DNA from: a virus
Lineage: Duplodnaviria > Heunggongvirae > Uroviricota > Caudoviricetes
Length of the DNA: 38,867 nt
Virus record (IMG/VR): IMGVR_UViG_2526164634_000034
Span: 1-38,867 of that record
Direction: 5' to 3' (one strand)
The notes beneath the pieces were generated by a model. It did not search any database and was not told the DNA's origin. It saw nothing but the letters and a program-made list of their open reading frames with translations. Shown here one piece after another: positions 12,135-33,593 of this stretch. Numbering within the stretch: position 1 is the stretch's first letter; the number at the start of each line of letters is the position of its first letter. The position numbers and the translations under genes were made by a program.

Positions 12135-12965
12135 TGATTACTCCTGGTTAACTCGGCATTAAGTCTGCCGGTGACTGTGGTGGTGACTGGAATTGCTGTT
12201 GTTGTGACTCGGCGACATCTTTCAGAAGGCGTATTGCCTCCATCACTGCTTTGTCATCGATGTTTCTGGCTTGAGCCAGTTTATAGACAGTGTTTGCCTG
12301 ACTCTCCATCGCATCCTGCTGGGCAGTAAATGCTTTGATTTGAGTTTGAGCAGTTTCGTTAGTTGCTTTTTGCGCTTCTGCCTGCGCTGCTACCATTTGC
12401 GCCTGAGCGAGAACCATTTCAGGATTTGGCTGGCTTTGTGCTGCCATTTGCGCCTGTTGAACAATCTGCTGCTCTTTCTCATTGCGTGGTTTTGCAATAC
12501 CAGATATCAGCAGTTGGTTTCGGTTGTACTCTTTGAAGTCATCAAGGCCTTCGCCATCGATATTGTCCAGAATAATACCCTGAATTGCCGGGCGCATTGG
12601 GTCTGTTGGAAGCATAGAGCTAAGGACATTTGTCAGTACAGAAACCGTTGCATCACGTCGTGCTGTGTAGCTTGGTCCAACATCAACCGTCACATCGTAT
12701 CGACCGACAGAAAGGTCATTTAACGCAACAACAGCCCCTGTTTGCCTGTCAACAACCTGTGCGCTCAGGACAGCGATATCATCACTTCCATCTTCGTTAA
12801 CGATGCGCACTTCACGTTCTGAACCGTACACTTCACGCGCCATTGACAGCCATACTTCACCAGCGCGTTTAAGACTTTTCGCCATATTATCCAGATAGAT
12901 AAACGAAGCCATATCTGCTCTGTTCATCAAGTTGTTAACCGTTTCCTGAGCAATATTACTTGGCA

Positions 12966-14294
12966 CTGAGAGATCCCCTCATAATTTCCCCAAAACGTAA
13001 CCATGTGTGAATAGATTTTGAGTAAGCAGGGTTGCAGCCACGAGTGAGTCTTCCCTTGTTATTGTGTAGCCAGAATGCCGCAAAACTTCCATGCCTAAGC
13101 GAACTGTTGAGAGTACGTTTCGATTTCTGACTGTGTTAGCCTGGAAGTGCTTGTCCCAACCTTGTTTCTGAGCATGAACGCCCGCAAGCCAACATGTTAG
13201 TTGAAGCATCAGGGCGATTAGCAGCATGATATCAAAACGCTCTGAGCTGCTCGTTCGGCTATGGCGTAGGCCTAGTCCGTAGGCAGGACTTTTCAAGTCT
13301 CGGAAGGTTTCTTCAATCTGCATTCGCTTCGAATAGATATTAACAAGTTGTTTGGGTGTTCGAATTTCAACAGGTAAGTTAGTTGCTAGAATCCATGGCT
13401 CCTTTGCCGACGCTGAGTAGATTTTAGGTGACGGGTGGTGACAATGAGTCCGTGTCGAGCGCTGATTTTTTCGGCCTTTAGAGCGAGATTTATACAATAG
13501 AATTTGGCATGAGATTGGATTGCTTTTAGTCAGCCTCTTATAGCCTAAAGTCTTTGAGTGACTAGATGACATATCATGTAAGTTGCTGATAGGTTTCCAG
13601 TTTTCCGCTCCTAGGTCTGCATATTGTACTTTTCCTCTTACTCGACTTAACCAGTACCAACCCAGCTTCTCAACGGATTTATACCATGGCACTTTAAAGC
13701 CAGCATCACTGACAATGAGCGGTGTGGTGTTACTCGGTAGAATGCTCGCAAGGTCGGCTAGAAATTGGTCATGAGCTTTCTTTGAACATTGCTCTGAAAG
13801 CGGGAACGCTTTCTCATAAAGAGTAACAGAACGACCGTGTAGTGCGACTGAAGCTCGCAATACCATAAGCCGTTTTTGCTCACGGATATCAGACCAGTCA
13901 ACAAGTACAATGGGCATCGTATTGCCCGAACAGATAAAGCTAGCATGCCAACGGTATACAGCGAGTCGCTCTTTGTGGAGGTGACGATTACCTAACAATC
14001 GGTCGATTCGTTTGATGTTATGTTTTGTTCTCGCTTTGGTTGGCAGGTTACGGCCAAGTTCGGTAAGAGTGAGAGTTTTACAGTCAAGTAAGGCGTGGCA
14101 AGCCAACGTTAAGCTGTTGAGTCGTTTTAAGTGTAATTCGGGGCAGAATTGGTAAAGAGAGTCGTGTAAAATATCGAGTTCGCACATTTTGTTGTCTGAT
14201 TATTGATTTTTGGCGAAACCATTTGATCATATGACAAGATGTGTATCTACCTTAACTTAATGATTTTGATAAAAATCATTAGGGGATTCATCAG
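12966..14294 (-). mobile_element. IS10 (1329 bp) with 9-bp target-site duplication TACTTGGCA
   Basis: Terminal sequences CTGAGAGATCCCCTCATAATTTCCCC (12966..) and ...AATCATTAGGGGATTCATCAG (..14294); identical 9-bp direct repeats at 12957..12965 and 14295..14303. Confidence 0.95.
12979..14187 (-). CDS. IS10 transposase
   Basis: 402 aa, MCELDILHDSLYQFCPELHLKRLNSLTLACHALLDCK..., matching the recalled IS10 (Tn10) transposase. Confidence 0.95.
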   Translation of the reverse strand: MCELDILHDSLYQFCPELHLKRLNSLTLACHALLDCKTLTLTELGRNLPTKARTKHNIKRIDRLLGNRHLHKERLAVYRWHASFICSGNTMPIVLVDWSDIREQKRLMVLRASVALHGRSVTLYEKAFPLSEQCSKKAHDQFLADLASILPSNTTPLIVSDAGFKVPWYKSVEKLGWYWLSRVRGKVQYADLGAENWKPISNLHDMSSSHSKTLGYKRLTKSNPISCQILLYKSRSKGRKNQRSTRTHCHHPSPKIYSASAKEPWILATNLPVEIRTPKQLVNIYSKRMQIEETFRDLKSPAYGLGLRHSRTSSSERFDIMLLIALMLQLTCWLAGVHAQKQGWDKHFQANTVRNRNVLSTVRLGMEVLRHSGYTITREDSLVAATLLTQNLFTHGYVLGKL

Positions 14295-15614
14295 TACTTG
14301 GCATCTGCTGCATGGCCTGACTGCCGCCTGTAACCTCCTGAATATCAGCACTGGTTTGCTGTAGTAATGCAGCCAATGCCTGATTCATAACCGCAGGCTG
14401 TGTATATCCTGCCGGGGTAGCTCCAGCGATAATGTTGCCAGATTTATCTCTCACTTCGCGCAACGGCAAGAACGCTGGGCGTTTCTTGTTGCGAGCCTCC
14501 CAGTGCTTCTCAAGTCCACGAATTTGCTCCATGCCAACTATAGGGATCTGACCGGGGTCTTGCGCTGCAGTATCAGCCAGCATTGAAACCTGAAGGTTGT
14601 ACAAACGCTGTGGATCCATTGCTTTTGCAATGTGCCCTTCGACACGCTCAATGTCATCAATGAACCAGCGTTTTCCATAAACCGGGATGAGGGGGATATG
14701 CTCACCAGGAATACGTCGAGGTTTCTCAAGGAAACCATCACCATCCACTACGGATACATACACACGACGGCGCTTCACTGAGCGCCTTGCCACTTCCTGA
14801 AATCCAGCTATTGCCAGTTCATCTTCAATATCTTCAACCTGATCACTGTCGTATGTTGCAATCTCTCCAGTGATTGGATGTCGATAACTGATGACGTCAA
14901 CAGACTCTTTACGAACTTCGTAATACTTCGCTATGTAAATAACATCTGCACCAAACCAGTTATATTCCCAACTGGTCATAGACGTTACATCCAGAGAAGT
15001 GGGAGGTTTCTTTCCGTATTCAGCCTCATATTTTTCAGGTGACAACGAATACATACAGAACGCCCACAACGCGTCAGATTTGTCGTACTTCTTAGCGTCA
15101 GGGTCAAACCACACAGAGCGCGACGGGTCGTATATTGGTTCAATAGCAATACGCTGACGATCGTCCATGGGGTCGTATTCATTGACCAGCATCGACGCCA
15201 AACGGAAGCAACCGAAACCACCAGTAGCAGCGTCGTCAAATGCATTATCGCAAGCCTCACCGCCATCAGTTTCTTCGTAGTCAGCACGGAACAGACCATT
15301 TAATTTATTGGCTAACTCTTCGCTTGCCTCTCTGTCACCAGGACGAAACTTAACGGTTATTCTGTTATTGCGGTATTCTGCAATGATGCGGTTAAGTTCA
15401 GTTGCTACCTTATTGATTTCAAACTTAGGATACTTCTCGAACTGCTCATCAAGCTTAGTTCCAGCCGCCGTTGCTCCTTCCCATTGACCTCCGGGGACAC
15501 GAGCAAACCTCGTAGCTTCAATGCACTTTTCGCGCACTTCCTTCTGTGGAGAATAGGCGCGGTCAAACCTGAGCATGATCCGCTCATGTTTTTTCTCTAA
15601 TGTCTCTGCCATGT

Positions 15615-17027
15615 TTACCAACCGGAGGATGAGGGAACGTATATTTCTGTTTCTTCGCGGACCAATGCCGGGAAATGCATACACATCATCAGCGCATCAG
15701 CCAGGTTAGGAGATGGAATACCGAGCTTCTGCTTCATTTCGACCTTAGTCATAAGCTCCAGCTTCCCGTTATTATTGAATTTGCGCTGAATCTGAGTCAG
15801 TTCTGCAAACAGCTTCTCCAGCATCTTCTCGCCTATCGCTTCTTTGTCGAAACTCAGCATGTCGTCGGGGTCTGCATACTCACCGTGAACAACCGCCCGA
15901 TATGTCAGATACAGCCTGTCAGCCAGCGCATAATAGAATTGCGCTCGCTTATTGCGGAATACATCGCCAATAGTGCGAACGTTGTCGCCCTGTACTACTT
16001 CATCAGCCCATGCTCCGGCCTGATACGGCGCATCTTCATCGAATGGCGATTCGCTGCCCTTGAACATCGTGGCGGTGATTTTCTTGCCGGAGAACGCTTC
16101 CGTTGTCTGTCTGCGTAGCCCGGCACCAACACCATCACCATCCCACAGGTAGTGGTCAGCGCCGTCTTCAATCGCCAGAGAAGTAGCCCAGTCAGCACCC
16201 TCGTTGATGTCCATCAGCAGACCTTCGGCAATGCGTTTAACTACCGAACCGTGGCGCGATGCGTAACCTTTAGCATCTGGCCCTGTATCTGACGGGTCAT
16301 GTGCAGAAACAACAGCGCCTTTCGCTTTCCATCCGAGTTTCTTGTGCGCATCGGTTGCGGCTTCAAGCCATTCACGTTTGATGATTGCCATATCACTTGC
16401 GCTTACCGGCTCACCAAGCCAGATGTGACGATACAGTGTCGGGTTTCTGCGTTTACACTCTTCCATCTCCAGACGGAGAACTTCAGGAAAGTGCGGGTTG
16501 TCGGTGTAGTTCACCGTCAGCAGACAAATATCATCAGGAGGGTTTACGACGAATCGCTGATAGGTATCGTCGAGGATGTTTTTCGGGTTAAAGCTCACCC
16601 ATATTTCGGAAAACGGCTTGCGGATTGTTGGGATCAGGATATCCCACGATTCCTTTGTTACCGCTTCCGCTTCTTCCACCCAGCAGATATCAATGCCTTC
16701 GAGCGATTTAATCTTCGTCGGGTTGTTTTTGATGCCGTAGAACATGAACTCAGCATTCGTTCCGAGATGACGAATCATGGAACGCTGAATTTCAAACTCA
16801 GCCGAATACCCTTCACGCTCGATGGTATCTTCAAGCAACCGGATTACCGAATCGCTGATACTGTTTTGCAGTTCACGAGCGCAGAGTATGCGCACAGGCT
16901 GCCGACGCGCCGCTTCAACAAGCAGCCTCGCAATTGCCCATGACTTACCGCTACCTCGACCGCCTTTGGCGACTTTGTAGCGATGCGCCTCAATGAACGG
17001 TTCAAAGATAGGATTAATCGAGGTCAT
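15615..17027 (-). CDS. Terminase large subunit
   Basis: 470 aa (Sf6 gp2 size) with Walker A-like KVAKGGRGSGKS near the N-terminus; stop overlaps the portal start. Confidence 0.9.
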   Translation of the reverse strand: MTSINPIFEPFIEAHRYKVAKGGRGSGKSWAIARLLVEAARRQPVRILCARELQNSISDSVIRLLEDTIEREGYSAEFEIQRSMIRHLGTNAEFMFYGIKNNPTKIKSLEGIDICWVEEAEAVTKESWDILIPTIRKPFSEIWVSFNPKNILDDTYQRFVVNPPDDICLLTVNYTDNPHFPEVLRLEMEECKRRNPTLYRHIWLGEPVSASDMAIIKREWLEAATDAHKKLGWKAKGAVVSAHDPSDTGPDAKGYASRHGSVVKRIAEGLLMDINEGADWATSLAIEDGADHYLWDGDGVGAGLRRQTTEAFSGKKITATMFKGSESPFDEDAPYQAGAWADEVVQGDNVRTIGDVFRNKRAQFYYALADRLYLTYRAVVHGEYADPDDMLSFDKEAIGEKMLEKLFAELTQIQRKFNNNGKLELMTKVEMKQKLGIPSPNLADALMMCMHFPALVREETEIYVPSSSGW

Positions 17028-27009: not shown

Positions 27010-27291
27010 TCAGGCCTCGAAGAATTCGCCGTTCTTCGGGGCTTTTTCTTTTGTCAGGTAATTGGCAAGCCGCTTAGTCAGCTCAGCCATTTCATCGTCT
27101 TCGATTCCGTATTCCAGAACAGCCAGCATCATGCTTACCTGCGAGAAGAAACCATTCTTCCATCGGCTTACCTGATATTCAGGAACCCCCATTGCTCGAG
27201 CGAATGTCTTCTGCCCCATCAGTGCCAGTTTGTTCAGCAAGGCTGACTCGATGCGAGCCGCTTTCTTGCTTTTAGTTGCAATAGTACCCAT
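27010..27291 (-). CDS. cII: CII-like transcriptional activator
   Basis: 93 aa; ...ARIESALLNKLALMG...VSRWK...SMMLAVLEYGIEDDEMAELTK resembles recalled lambda CII. Confidence 0.8.
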   Translation of the reverse strand: MGTIATKSKKAARIESALLNKLALMGQKTFARAMGVPEYQVSRWKNGFFSQVSMMLAVLEYGIEDDEMAELTKRLANYLTKEKAPKNGEFFEA

Positions 27292-27407: not shown

Positions 27408-27638
27408 TTAAGCGGCCATTAATTCAGGCCAGATGCTTTCCCAATCAACCGGATGAAGGTCTTTGCGAGTCACTTCACCATTGCTGAACTTCTCAATCAG
27501 AACACAAAGTGCTGCGCCCAATTCATGATTACGGCTAAGTGCTTTCCTCAAATAGCCGATAGAAGTTCCGCACTTGGTGGCAAATTCTCTCTGCTCTTCC
27601 AGTGAAAGGGAGTTCAGATACAAGCGGAGTTCTTCCAT
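27408..27638 (-). CDS. cro: Cro-like repressor
   Basis: 76-aa ORF divergent from cI across the operator region; not lambda-type Cro. Confidence 0.7.
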   Translation of the reverse strand: MEELRLYLNSLSLEEQREFATKCGTSIGYLRKALSRNHELGAALCVLIEKFSNGEVTRKDLHPVDWESIWPELMAA

Positions 27639-27672: not shown

Positions 27673-27728
27673 TTTACCTGTAGGTAAAAAGCAAATCAAT
27701 ACCCATAGGTTATTTACCGGCAGGTAAT
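27673..27728. promoter_or_regulatory. OR operator region (pR/pRM)
   Basis: Three related 16-17-bp near-palindromes: TTTACCTGTAGGTAAAA (27673..27689), AATACCCATAGGTTATT (27698..27714), TTTACCGGCAGGTAAT (27713..27728), between divergent cro and cI. Confidence 0.7.
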
Positions 27729-27746
27729 CAAAGATAGAATTAAATC

Positions 27747-28433
27747 ATGGATAAATACGAACAAAGACGACTAAGGCTGATAGAGATAAGAGACCGATTC
27801 TGTAATGGAAAGGCCTCAGAGTTGGCTCGTCGAATAGAAAGGGAACCATCATACGTTTCCAGAATGCTGTATCCGGAAGGAAAAAGCGGAAAAAAACGCA
27901 TTGCTGACGATATGATGGAGCTAATTGAAAAATCTTTTAATCTCCCACGCGGATGGATGGACATGCTTGCAGATGGTAAAGCTGGAGCTACGGACCATCT
28001 TGAGTTTGCGGGTAACGTTCGTGCGGGTTTTGTTCCGGTAATTGGTGAAGCCGTTTTGGGAGTTGATGGCTCAGTGGATATGATTGAATTCAGATCCGGT
28101 TGGTTAAGCATCTACAGCGGCGATAAAGATGCTTACGGTCTGAAGGTTAAGGGTGACAGCATGTGGCCAAGGATTCAGTCAGGAGAATATGTTGTTATTG
28201 AACCAAATACGCCAGTACATCCAGGTGATGAAGTCTTTGTAAGGACCAAAGACGGTCACAACATGATAAAGATCATGAACAAAACAAGAGACGGTGATTA
28301 TCAGTTTAGTAGCATAAACAGTGATCACCGCCCAATCACTCTTCCTGTTGAAGAAGTTGATAAAATGCATTTTGTTTCAGCTATTGTGAAACACACCAGG
28401 TACGTAGACCAGGACGATCTGCCAAAAGTTTGA
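27747..28433 (+). CDS. cI: CI repressor (HTH plus LexA-like S24 autoprotease domain)
   Basis: 228 aa; C-terminal domain with catalytic Ser (GDSMWP) and downstream Lys; divergent from cro. Confidence 0.9.
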   Translation: MDKYEQRRLRLIEIRDRFCNGKASELARRIEREPSYVSRMLYPEGKSGKKRIADDMMELIEKSFNLPRGWMDMLADGKAGATDHLEFAGNVRAGFVPVIGEAVLGVDGSVDMIEFRSGWLSIYSGDKDAYGLKVKGDSMWPRIQSGEYVVIEPNTPVHPGDEVFVRTKDGHNMIKIMNKTRDGDYQFSSINSDHRPITLPVEEVDKMHFVSAIVKHTRYVDQDDLPKV

Positions 28434-28447
28434 GGATAAAGCAGCAA

Positions 28448-28744
28448 ATGTTTATACCCGGCATAGTAGTCGCTGTTGTAATCATCTGCTTCATATGGGC
28501 AAAGTTATCTCCTGTAAGCTCTAAGCATACAGCTGAACTCATGAGGAAGAAGCATCTTATACATGAGGCAGAATCGATAATTAAAAAGTTCAAAGGCATG
28601 TCATACGACGACATGTCATCAGAGCAGATTGCTATGTATAAATGCGCCATTGAGCGCCTTGACTACTTAAACGGACTCAAACCCAAACACACCCCAGTAG
28701 AATCAAAATTGCCGCAATGGCCAAGCAATCCAAATAGCTTCTGA
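28448..28744 (+). CDS. Small single-pass membrane protein at the rex position (candidate exclusion factor)
   Basis: 98 aa from ATG 28448 (GAGGA upstream; the track ORF begins at TTG 28430); N-terminal transmembrane helix FIPGIVVAVVIICFIWAKL; co-oriented with cI and followed by a terminator. Confidence 0.5.
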   Translation: MFIPGIVVAVVIICFIWAKLSPVSSKHTAELMRKKHLIHEAESIIKKFKGMSYDDMSSEQIAMYKCAIERLDYLNGLKPKHTPVESKLPQWPSNPNSF

Positions 28745-28755
28745 CATCTCCTTTC

Positions 28756-28778
28756 AGCCCGCAAAGCGGGCTTTTTTA
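28756..28778 (+). terminator. Rho-independent terminator ending the cI operon
   Basis: AGCCCGC-AAA-GCGGGCT followed by TTTTTTAT. Confidence 0.7.
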
Positions 28779-28797
28779 TATCAATCCAAAAAATTAA

Positions 28798-28881
28798 TTA
28801 CCTGAAAATTCAAGCAGGTAAACTCTTACATCAATTTTATTTACCTACAGGTATAGACAGCTGTTTTACCTGCAGGTATAT
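28798..28881. promoter_or_regulatory. OL operator region / pL
   Basis: Repeats of the OR-type motif: TTTACCTACAGGTATAG (28838..28856) and TTTTACCTGCAGGTATAT (28864..28881), plus a spaced variant TTACCTGAAAATTCAAGCAGGTAA (28798..28821). Confidence 0.65.
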
Positions 28882-28922
28882 TTTAGGCCATCAGCAGGAC
28901 GCACTAACCACCATGAAGGTGA

Positions 28923-29221: not shown

Positions 29222-29548
29222 ATGGATGCACAAACACGCCGCCGCGAACGTCGCGCAGAGAAACAGGCTCAATGGAAAGCAGCAAATCCCCTGTTGGTTG
29301 GGGTAAGCGCAAAACCAGTTAACCGCCCTATTCTCTCGCTGAATCGCAAACCGAAATCACGAGTAGAAAGCGCACTGAATCCGATAGACCTTACGGTGCT
29401 GGCTGAATACCACGAACAGATTGAAAACAACCTGCAACGTATTGAGCGCAAGAATCAGCGCACATGGTACAGCAAACCACGCAGTGAAATGGGTGTGACT
29501 TGTGTTGGTCGCCAGAAAATGAAATTAGGCAGCAAACCACTTATTTGA
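29222..29548 (+). CDS. N: Antiterminator N
   Basis: 108 aa, MDAQTRRRERRAEKQAQWKAANPLLVGVSAKPVNRPILSLNRK... with arginine-rich motif; near-identical to recalled lambda N in its N-terminal two thirds. Confidence 0.95.
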   Translation: MDAQTRRRERRAEKQAQWKAANPLLVGVSAKPVNRPILSLNRKPKSRVESALNPIDLTVLAEYHEQIENNLQRIERKNQRTWYSKPRSEMGVTCVGRQKMKLGSKPLI

Positions 29549-29569: not shown

Positions 29570-30073
29570 TTATTGATAGTGTTTTATGTTCAGATAATGC
29601 CCGATGACTTTGTCATGCAGCTCCACCGATTTTGAGAACGACAGCGACTTCCGTCCCAGCCGTGCCAGGTGCTGCCTCAGATTCAGGTTATGCCGCTCAA
29701 TTCGCTGCGTATATCGCTTGCTGATTACGTGCAGCTTTCCCTTCAGGCGGGATTCATACAGCGGCCAGCCATCCGTCATCCATATCACCACGTCAAAGGG
29801 TGACAGCAGGCTCATAAGACGCCCCAGCGTCGCCATAGTGCGTTCACCGAATACGTGCGCAACAACCGTCTTCCGGAGCCTGTCATACGCGTAAAACAGC
29901 CAGCGCTGGCGCGATTTAGCCCCGACGTATCCCCACTGTTCGTCCATTTCCGCGCAGACGATGACGTCACTGCCCGGCTGTATGCGCGAGGTTACCGACT
30001 GCGGCCTGAGTTTTTTAAATGGCGGAAAATCGTGTTGAGGCCAACGCCCATAATGCGGGCGGTTGCCCGGCAT
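29570..30073 (-). CDS. insB: IS1 transposase InsB
   Basis: 167 aa, [37 protein letters not shown]... Confidence 0.95.
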
Positions 30074-30267
30074 CCAACGCCATTCATGGCCATATCAATG
30101 ATTTTCTGGTGCGTACCGGGTTGAGAAGCGGTGTAAGTGAACTGCAGTTGCCATGTTTTACGGCAGTGAGAGCAGAGATAGCGCTGATGTCCGGCGGTGC
30201 TTTTGCCGTTACGCACCACCCCGTCAGTAGCTGAACAGGAGGGACAGCTGATAGAAACAGAAGCCAC
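29992..30267 (-). CDS. insA: IS1 InsA
   Basis: 91 aa, [40 protein letters not shown]... Confidence 0.95.
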
Positions 30268-30333: not shown

Positions 30334-30804
30334 ATGACAAAATCATGGAGAGTACCTTTTCCTGAATCAGAAACTGAACATGATGGAATGCCTGTTTTCT
30401 GGAGATTCCAGGCGACAGTTGAAGAAGATGGGATAAAAATATTCGCACTTCAATATATAGCTTTTCATCAGACAGAGCATTATGCATGGTTGGTTCCTGC
30501 GCATTGGATTGTTAATTTTAAACCAGCACCAAATCAGTGGTTACAGGAATGGAAACAAAGGAGAAATAGATATGCAATTAAGAAAGTAGCAAAAAATGCA
30601 GAAAGATCTTTTGCATTCCCAACGAAGAAACTTGCTATTGAAAGTTTATTGCGCCGGAAGAAATACCATTTAATGAGAATAAAACAAGATTTGGCTGTTG
30701 TATCAACTCTTGTTGATGGGATGAAAAATATTGATACATCAACACCAGATATTGAATATAACTTTGGACACAACCAAGAAACAGAAAATTGGGTATTCTA
30801 CTAG
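30334..30804 (+). CDS. Hypothetical 156-aa protein, first gene after N (ral position)
   Basis: ORF whose Shine-Dalgarno lies inside the IS1 target duplication; AT-rich by eye; no recognisable motif. Confidence 0.55.
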   Translation: MTKSWRVPFPESETEHDGMPVFWRFQATVEEDGIKIFALQYIAFHQTEHYAWLVPAHWIVNFKPAPNQWLQEWKQRRNRYAIKKVAKNAERSFAFPTKKLAIESLLRRKKYHLMRIKQDLAVVSTLVDGMKNIDTSTPDIEYNFGHNQETENWVFY

Positions 30805-30828
30805 GCCGCATAGTCGGCCTTTATTTTT
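30803..30828 (+). terminator. Rho-independent terminator
   Basis: AGGCCG-CATAGT-CGGCCT followed by TTATTTTTGG, immediately after the 156-aa ORF. Confidence 0.55.
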
Positions 30829-30850
30829 GGCATAAATAACAGAGGCTAAC

Positions 30851-31147
30851 ATGGAATTTAAAGGTACTGAAGGTAAATGGGAAATAATGATGGATGGCGA
30901 TGAGATTAAAATCATCCAGGCAGACTCTCTTGAAAATGGCACAGGCTGGCGTTCGTATATTGCAATCTGTGAGGAAGTTCAATGCATTGAAGATGCCAAT
31001 CTAATAGCGGCAGCACCTGACCTTCTCGAAGCACTTCAGTTATTACTTAAGCAAACCAAAAATAGAACAACGACAACATATCCAGAATGGTATGGAGCTG
31101 TTAATAAAGGTCTCGCAGCAATCAGAAAAGCCATAGGTGATGAGTAA
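30851..31147 (+). CDS. Hypothetical 98-aa protein
   Basis: Contains ANLIAAAPDLLEALQ, loosely resembling the NAEFIAAANPATVLALLDE segment of the Ea22-like protein at 37317..38033; preceded by AGGCTAACATGG. Confidence 0.5.
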   Translation: MEFKGTEGKWEIMMDGDEIKIIQADSLENGTGWRSYIAICEEVQCIEDANLIAAAPDLLEALQLLLKQTKNRTTTTYPEWYGAVNKGLAAIRKAIGDE

Positions 31148-31305
31148 TGAATAAGAAATACATCGTTGAAGTTATAGAGCGAGAAACGAAAGAAGTAATT
31201 AAACATTTCGAATTTGATAATTATAGAAAAGCTGACCGCGTAGAAGAAGGATTGTTGCGACAAAGTAATCTCGAAAAATTTGATGTTGTCATGCGATGCG
31301 AATAA
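31147..31305 (+). CDS. Hypothetical 52-aa protein
   Basis: Start overlaps the upstream stop (TAATG); MNKKYIVEVIERETKEVIKHFEFDNYRKADRVEEGLLRQSNLEKFDVVMRCE; not in the ORF track (<60 aa). Confidence 0.35.
   Translation: MNKKYIVEVIERETKEVIKHFEFDNYRKADRVEEGLLRQSNLEKFDVVMRCE

Positions 31306-31523: not shown

Positions 31524-33593
<2,070 letters not shown>

Follow-up and report, generated by a model that had tools for sequence, protein, structure and literature searches.

Which function could be encoded by a 98-aa open reading frame (ORF) that directly follows the repressor gene of a lambdoid prophage? This question is raised by the stretch of DNA analyzed here in full (38,867 nucleotides, IMG/VR record IMGVR_UViG_2526164634_000034; hereafter the window), whose immunity region is lambdoid, with its map orientation reversed. 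The minus strand of this region contains cII (27010-27291) and cro (27408-27638), and the plus strand a cI-type repressor gene (27747-28433) for a 228-aa protein with an S24-peptidase C-terminal domain (Pfam Peptidase_S24, E=1.4e-17; phrog_4, transcriptional repressor). This cI is of the mEp043 immunity type and constitutes the first gene of the putative cI-ORF operon. As the original prediction had stated, the 98-aa gene (28448-28744, plus strand; ATG at 28448, TGA at 28742-28744) lies directly 3' of cI and is co-oriented with it, its ATG being found 14 nt past the cI stop codon. That stop codon is overlapped by a Shine-Dalgarno sequence, GAGGA (28432-28436, plus strand; evident from direct reading), 11 nt ahead of the ORF ATG.

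Upstream of cI, a consensus scan points to a putative PRM-like promoter (TTTACC-16-TAGAAT; 27713-27740, plus strand), which overlaps an OR operator. The OR repeats between cro and cI (27673-27687 and 27713-27727) share the palindrome of the OL copies. Since only 7 nt separate the end of the -10 hexamer TAGAAT from the cI ATG, the cI mRNA may well lack a leader, like that of lambda. Downstream, the cI-ORF unit is closed by a Rho-independent terminator (28756-28779, plus strand), which corresponds to lambda timm. Its 7-bp stem with six G-C pairs (28756-28772) begins 12 bases past the ORF stop codon and is followed by TTTTTT. The prediction of a strong intrinsic terminator at this place is borne out by its folding energy (-12.6 kcal/mol, z=-2.65; 0 of 200 shuffles fold as well), and its sequence is unchanged across all 31 copies of the locus that we compared. 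Further downstream follow a wider inverted repeat of the OL region (28799-28822, plus strand) and the OL operators TTTACCT(A/G)CAGGTATA (28840-28855 and 28865-28880, plus strand). The operators overlap a pL-like promoter (28854-28882, plus strand; 10/12 consensus matches in the scan), at which the mEp043 annotation has a putative PL. The first gene of the pL operon encodes a lambda-type antitermination protein N (29222-29548, plus strand; Pfam N36, E=1.5e-26), annotated as such in mEp043 and many other phages. The order of cro, OR, cI-ORF-terminator, OL-pL and N, together with the shared operators, places the ORF in the lambda rex position, as had been proposed.

The consensus scan finds no promoter-like site between cI and the ORF. 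Because the two genes are separated by only 14 nt, with no such site between them and a terminator only after the ORF, it is reasonable to infer that the ORF is transcribed with cI in the lysogen. An antisense promoter-like site within the ORF (28604-28577) is within chance expectation.

A short frame of this kind might of course be spurious, a non-coding spacer between cI and the terminator. The frame is short and AT-rich (41.8% GC), its Shine-Dalgarno spacing of 11 nt is long, and PGAP leaves it without annotation in RefSeq E. coli genomes. However, the frame is open in 31 of 31 copies, which represent 11 haplotypes and include 28 IMG/VR contigs, phage mEp043 and one E. coli chromosome. All of these copies start with either ATG or GTG, and 12 of the 19 polymorphic sites of the ORF fall on the third codon position. 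The most divergent haplotype differs from the ORF by seven synonymous and three conservative non-synonymous changes (dN/dS 0.10), with a dN/dS of 0.11 for cI in the same haplotype pair. Homologues of 27-43% identity retain the length, the transmembrane (TM) helix and the motifs described below, and the AlphaFold2 (AF2) model is confident. The ORF is a real gene under purifying selection as strong as that on cI, and the spurious-ORF reading, which we hold to be extremely improbable, is effectively refuted. An antisense ORF at 28381-28650 (minus strand) was rejected, as it gains stop codons in the divergent haplotype. With regard to the start of the gene, the mEp043 record PV340537 annotates a TTG at 28430 (104 aa). 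This is less likely than a start at 28448, which agrees better with the RefSeq annotation of mEp043, with the conserved N-terminus of the family, M-(Y/F)-I-(P/S), and with the alternation of ATG and GTG among the copies.

Annotation practice has kept this gene out of sight. At positions 3702-3998 of the locus extracted from NZ_CP073981.1 (L003), as well as in 51 other E. coli genomes, PGAP/RefSeq lists only the S24 peptidase and no 98-aa gene. RefSeq thereby omits the cI-linked gene, which makes it invisible to most defense-gene surveys; surveys based on annotation would miss the family. The mEp043 records name the 98-aa product a hypothetical protein. We found no published mention of the gene in the literature on mEp043, on genes downstream of lambdoid cI and on the mEp phage collection. 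The original description of the gene as undescribed thus holds for its function only: the sequence had already been deposited as the mEp043 hypothetical protein and grouped in phrog_10450. This "unknown function" family is matched over the full length (E=7.8e-55, residues 1-98 versus positions 1-98 of the 98-position profile) and evidently holds only close mEp043-type members.

The predicted single N-terminal TM helix is recovered as the segment FIPGIVVAVVIICFIWAKL (residues 2-20; 28451-28507, plus strand), which is the sole hydrophobic segment of the protein (mean Kyte-Doolittle hydropathy 2.53). No charge is present N-terminal of this segment, and four Lys/Arg are found within the next 25 residues. 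The same holds for all full-length family members, in which the TM segment is located at the extreme N-terminus, no charge precedes it, and three to seven Lys/Arg follow within 25 residues. According to the positive-inside rule, this bias predicts an Nout-Cin anchor, with the remaining ~78 residues located in the cytoplasm. A classical signal peptide is unlikely: the hydrophobic core lacks a positive residue on its N-terminal side, and the helix is unbroken to residue 47.

The AF2 model, based on an alignment of 22 sequences (mean pLDDT 84, pTM 0.63), begins with one long helix (residues 4-47), which extends beyond the membrane; a loop leads from it to another helix (residues 58-75) and an ordered C-terminal tail, and the modeled fold is a generic helical hairpin. 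Conserved motifs include S-W/Y-x-x-M in the loop, C-A-I-E-R-L in the second helix and an invariant W-P in the C-terminal tail. C66, A67, L71, W91 and P92 are invariant within the family, and K34, I38, E40, A41, V44, S52, W53, M56, Q60, R70, L74 and K78 nearly so. The claim that the protein contains no recognizable domain withstood profile as well as structure searches. Scans of Pfam, NCBIfam and PADLOC gave no meaningful match for the 98-aa protein (0 families of PADLOC-DB v2 defense profiles at E<=10), and Pfam gave only scattered sub-threshold matches for all 22 family members. Against PDB sequences, a profile search found nothing better than designed helical filaments (E=0.86), and Foldseek returned no significant match for the AF2 model in its viral and PDB libraries.

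The range of the gene is narrow. Queried as a single protein against GTDB species representatives, it matches one Escherichia species only. A word-indexed protein search gave only near-identical sequences, whereas phmmer, run exhaustively against 1.84 billion representatives, reached remoter ones (about eight true relatives), to which a profile search added further members. Apart from mis-called N-terminal extensions, all members measure 97-114 aa and have the TM helix and the motifs in common. The main new result of this analysis is that they form a small enterobacterial family which occupies two fixed genomic positions.

The first position is that of clade A, which comprises the window type and two relatives of 43% identity and is found directly behind a mEp043-type cI (84-100% identity) in 33 of 33 loci. 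The 2.2-kb immunity segment of the window is 99.1% identical to that of coliphage mEp043, a lambda-like siphovirus. The virion module of the window is P22-like, with a tailspike carrying the P22 head-binding domain (41-2026), a Sf6-type needle, gp10, a P22 coat protein, and gp16-, gp20- and gp7-type ejection proteins at 2450-6444. The presence of one cassette in a siphovirus and in the window's P22-like podovirus indicates that cI and the ORF travel as a unit between differing virions. They were never found apart: the cassette occurs in 52 of 5,426 complete E. coli genomes, with both genes present in 52 of 52, as well as in 30 IMG/VR and reference loci, and the two 43%-identical relatives follow cI genes of 84-85% identity.

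Such absolute linkage to one cI type would also be expected of an accessory to the lysis-lysogeny decision, expressed with cI from PRE/PRM, for example a membrane-tethered modulator of FtsH/HflKC (and hence of CII/CIII turnover) or a modulator of prophage induction. FtsH acts at the membrane in the lambda CII/CIII control, and the 98-aa protein is predicted to anchor its cytoplasmic domain there. Nevertheless, it bears no similarity to CIII or any regulator, and the distant relatives are found elsewhere. Clade B lies far from the immunity region, beside gene 16 and flanked by variable sequence, and one phage has two paralogs, one in each slot. We consider a role in the lysis-lysogeny decision quite unlikely.

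Clade B, which shares 27-37% identity with the window protein, always occurs in P22-like phages or prophages (phages N7 and HZ41, 24 IMG/VR contigs and several assemblies). The gene immediately faces the 3' end of ejection gene 16 in convergent orientation, with mnt or the tailspike gene on its other side. In complete E. coli genomes, the N7-type gene-16 end is accompanied by a clade-B gene in 60 of 60 records, and in 19 of these homology ends 18 nt upstream of the clade-B start codon. This pairing and the upstream homology break identify gene 16 and the clade-B gene as a conserved block between mosaic junctions. The identities of gp16 and of the neighboring family member fall together (~100%/99%, 85-87%/66%, 69%/72% and 35%/45%, respectively), and their tight linkage may be mere adjacency. 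Each of the two clades is present in about 1% of complete E. coli genomes. Both paralogs are present on IMG/VR contig 2563366933_000009, a single phage contig of 38 kb: the clade-A copy lies behind cI and is 100% identical to the window protein (locus L005, 4001-4294), and the clade-B copy lies beside gene 16 and is 98% identical to the N7 type (locus L057, 3929-4246). This co-occurrence would be expected for exclusion genes of different specificities.

Two further loci deserve mention. In a Logan contig of SRR10692002 (L032, 5001-5345), the 114-aa member P0009 has a truncated ejection module of the P22 type (gp7 plus a short gp20) on one flank and T6SS Hcp and Tlde1-domain genes on the other; the locus looks like a prophage remnant. 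In a P22-like prophage (L033, 2554-2886, plus strand), a 110-aa protein encoded directly upstream of a clade-B member resembles phrog_6324 and, to a lesser degree, families of holins and hemolysins; it may be another small membrane moron of the gene-16 slot.

P22 carries its sieA, and E. coli HS its type-B sieA, at exactly the position and in the orientation of clade B. Type A and type B SieA are absent from the window and from 65 loci in tblastn searches with the P22 and HS1 SieA queries, and none of the genes neighboring clade B is SieA-like. The absence of these SieA types from the 65 loci indicates that the family replaces SieA in the gene-16 slot. The sieA gene itself is present in only 22 of 66 P22-like phages (PMC10883804). 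In the window, the immI/sieA interval (2027-2449), which separates the tailspike gene from gene 16, contains only a gene for a 97-aa Mnt/Arc-like protein (2067-2360, plus strand; phrog_795); ant, arc and sieA are all missing, as is a clade-B paralog. Altogether, the family sits in both prophage sites of lysogen-expressed anti-phage genes, the cI-N interval and the sieA slot.

The window prophage itself is almost certainly defective, in view of three insertion sequences. An IS1 element (29570-30267, minus strand) interrupts the pL operon ~20 nt past the N stop codon; its InsB-like 167-aa ORF (29570-30073) and InsA-like 91-aa ORF (29992-30267) were identified by reading their translations. An IS21-family element (31592-33393, minus strand) is inserted in the early-left region and antisense to it, with ORFs for an IstB-like protein (260 aa; Pfam IstB_IS21, E=7.7e-112) and an IstA-like protein (340 aa; rve and HTH). 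Between these two elements, three co-oriented early-left ORFs of 156, 98 and 52 aa are found (30334-31305, plus strand), two of which had no match in a Pfam scan. The P22-type portal gene (12148-15684, minus strand) is split by an IS4-like DDE transposase gene (12979-14187) into an N-terminal part (14257-15684, profile positions 2-404) and a C-terminal part (12148-12966, profile positions 400-594).

Despite these insertions, cI and the 98-aa gene are intact. Persistence in an inactivated prophage is a trait one might expect of a lysogenic-conversion moron that is directed at the host (envelope stress, transport or colonization fitness) or of a nearly neutral passenger, and many of the morons that occupy such slots lack a phage-related phenotype. 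A role of this kind nonetheless appears unlikely to us: selection on the gene is as strong as on cI, the family recurs specifically in two classical exclusion slots, and its range is narrow and phage-bound, chromosomal homologues being confined to prophages in the contexts that we read.

Because the family is placed in both slots, has kept its membrane anchor and replaces SieA, we favor superinfection exclusion, namely that the gene encodes an inner-membrane factor which is expressed by the lysogen and blocks incoming phage DNA. Judged from sequence, we assign this reading a probability of roughly 40%, and an anti-phage function of some kind seems to us somewhat more likely than not. In the lysogen, the 98-aa protein would be made from the repressor operon, of which its gene is the second cistron, with transcription proceeding from PRM/PRE through cI and the ORF to the terminator. 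With a presumably periplasmic N-terminus of one residue, a single TM helix and a helical hairpin of ~78 residues that is predicted to be cytoplasmic, it might interfere at the point where the DNA-delivery apparatus of an incoming phage crosses or opens the inner membrane. In the case of P22-like phages, the apparatus met there would be the conduit of the ejection proteins gp7, gp20 and gp16. The superinfecting genome would thus be kept out and the lysogen would survive.

The anti-phage idea of the original prediction is strengthened because distant members hold the sieA slot of P22 in SieA's stead and because the cI-N interval is a documented mosaic hotspot of defense genes, which shares the highly active promoter of the repressor (PMC8585504). 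As evidence, position nevertheless counts as guilt by association only, given that the cI-N and immI regions also house genes unrelated to defense. Further points that speak against exclusion are the generic fold, the lack of homology to known exclusion or defense proteins, the long Shine-Dalgarno spacing and the missing PGAP calls. In addition, the soluble domain, if cytoplasmic as predicted, is less obviously suited to block a periplasmic conduit, although the conserved SieA motif is predicted to be cytoplasmic too. We speculate that the family as a whole could act on the DNA-delivery conduit (gp16-type or the siphovirus equivalent) at the cytoplasmic side of the inner membrane, with paralogs of differing specificity in both classical slots, behind cI and beside gene 16, and could represent a minimal single-helix replacement for the multi-pass SieA. 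This fuller version is tentative and, in all its parts together, somewhat unlikely.

If the family does exclude phages, it would provide a minimal and tractable tool (~100 aa, one TM helix) for the study of DNA passage through the inner membrane, a step that is still poorly understood in P22-like and lambda-like phages alike. The adjacency to gene 16 and the co-divergence with it suggest escape mutants as a direct route to the target. Should the family lack an anti-phage role, the finding is an ordinary one and adds a further conserved moron to those already known. An unknown moron behind cI would not surprise the specialist; it is the link between two slots and the substitution of SieA that give a specific and cheaply testable hypothesis.

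Among known systems, the position of the gene recalls RexAB and BstA. Lambda rexA and rexB share its slot, being located 3' of cI, co-oriented with it and followed by a terminator before OL/pL, and RexAB also includes a membrane-protein component. RexAB, however, consists of two genes, for the sensor RexA and the multi-pass RexB, in contrast to the single ORF found here between cI and the terminator. RexB contains four TM helices and the 98-aa protein one, and neither PADLOC nor PHROG gave a Rex match for the latter. The bstA gene likewise lies directly downstream of cI in lambdoid and P22-like prophages and has its own terminator, and BstA is highly expressed in lysogens (PMC8585504). It is, however, a far larger, cytoplasmic abortive-infection protein that localizes to phage replication sites, unlike the small membrane-anchored protein described here, to which it is unrelated in sequence (no shared Pfam or PADLOC match).

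The cI-N interval holds RexAB in lambda and BstA in BTP1, both of which are abortive-infection systems co-transcribed with cI (PMC8585504), and the same slot might therefore house an effector of the Rex kind. The cytoplasmic domain of such an effector would sense infection, oligomerize and depolarize or permeabilize the inner membrane, so that the infected cell would die or be arrested before phages are released. This scheme is compatible with a protein that has one TM helix and a long amphipathic helix, as well as with the resemblance of one clade-B neighbor to small holin- or hemolysin-like proteins (phrog_6324/689). Yet no partner sensor gene is present, a single TM helix offers no channel-like fold, PADLOC gives no match at E<=10, and clade B occupies the slot of injection blockers rather than that of abortive-infection genes. 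We regard abortive infection as an improbable alternative to the exclusion of incoming DNA.

In its presumed mode of action the protein is closer to two inner-membrane systems. P22 SieA (types A, B and C) is prophage-encoded and resides in the inner membrane; clade-B relatives occupy its slot between genes 16 and 9, whereas the window gene lies behind cI and not in immI. In SieA, a motif FxRYPxEAxxFNK is conserved and predicted to be cytoplasmic (PMC10883804), and the conserved soluble part of the 98-aa protein is likewise predicted to face the cytoplasm. SieA differs in its 164-212 aa and several TM helices (98-114 aa and one helix in the family). The two are not homologous (hhalign probability 1.8%), phrog_7745 (SieA-like) gave no match, and a regular-expression search for the motif had no match in any of the 22 family members. 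Gp15 of HK97, which reportedly blocks the entry of phage DNA at the inner membrane, resembles the 98-aa protein in its very small size, its one N-terminal TM helix and its charged helical tail. It is a moron with its own terminator, but measures 62 aa and is encoded inside the tail-gene cluster, as opposed to the immunity or immI (gene-16) regions of the family, and it is not homologous to them (hhalign probability 0.3%). The 98-aa gene may well work like SieA or HK97 gp15, as a small inner-membrane blocker of DNA entry. Combining a SieA- or gp15-like mode with the position of RexAB and BstA, and belonging to none of these groups, it would represent a protein family that is new, in a functional class that is already known.
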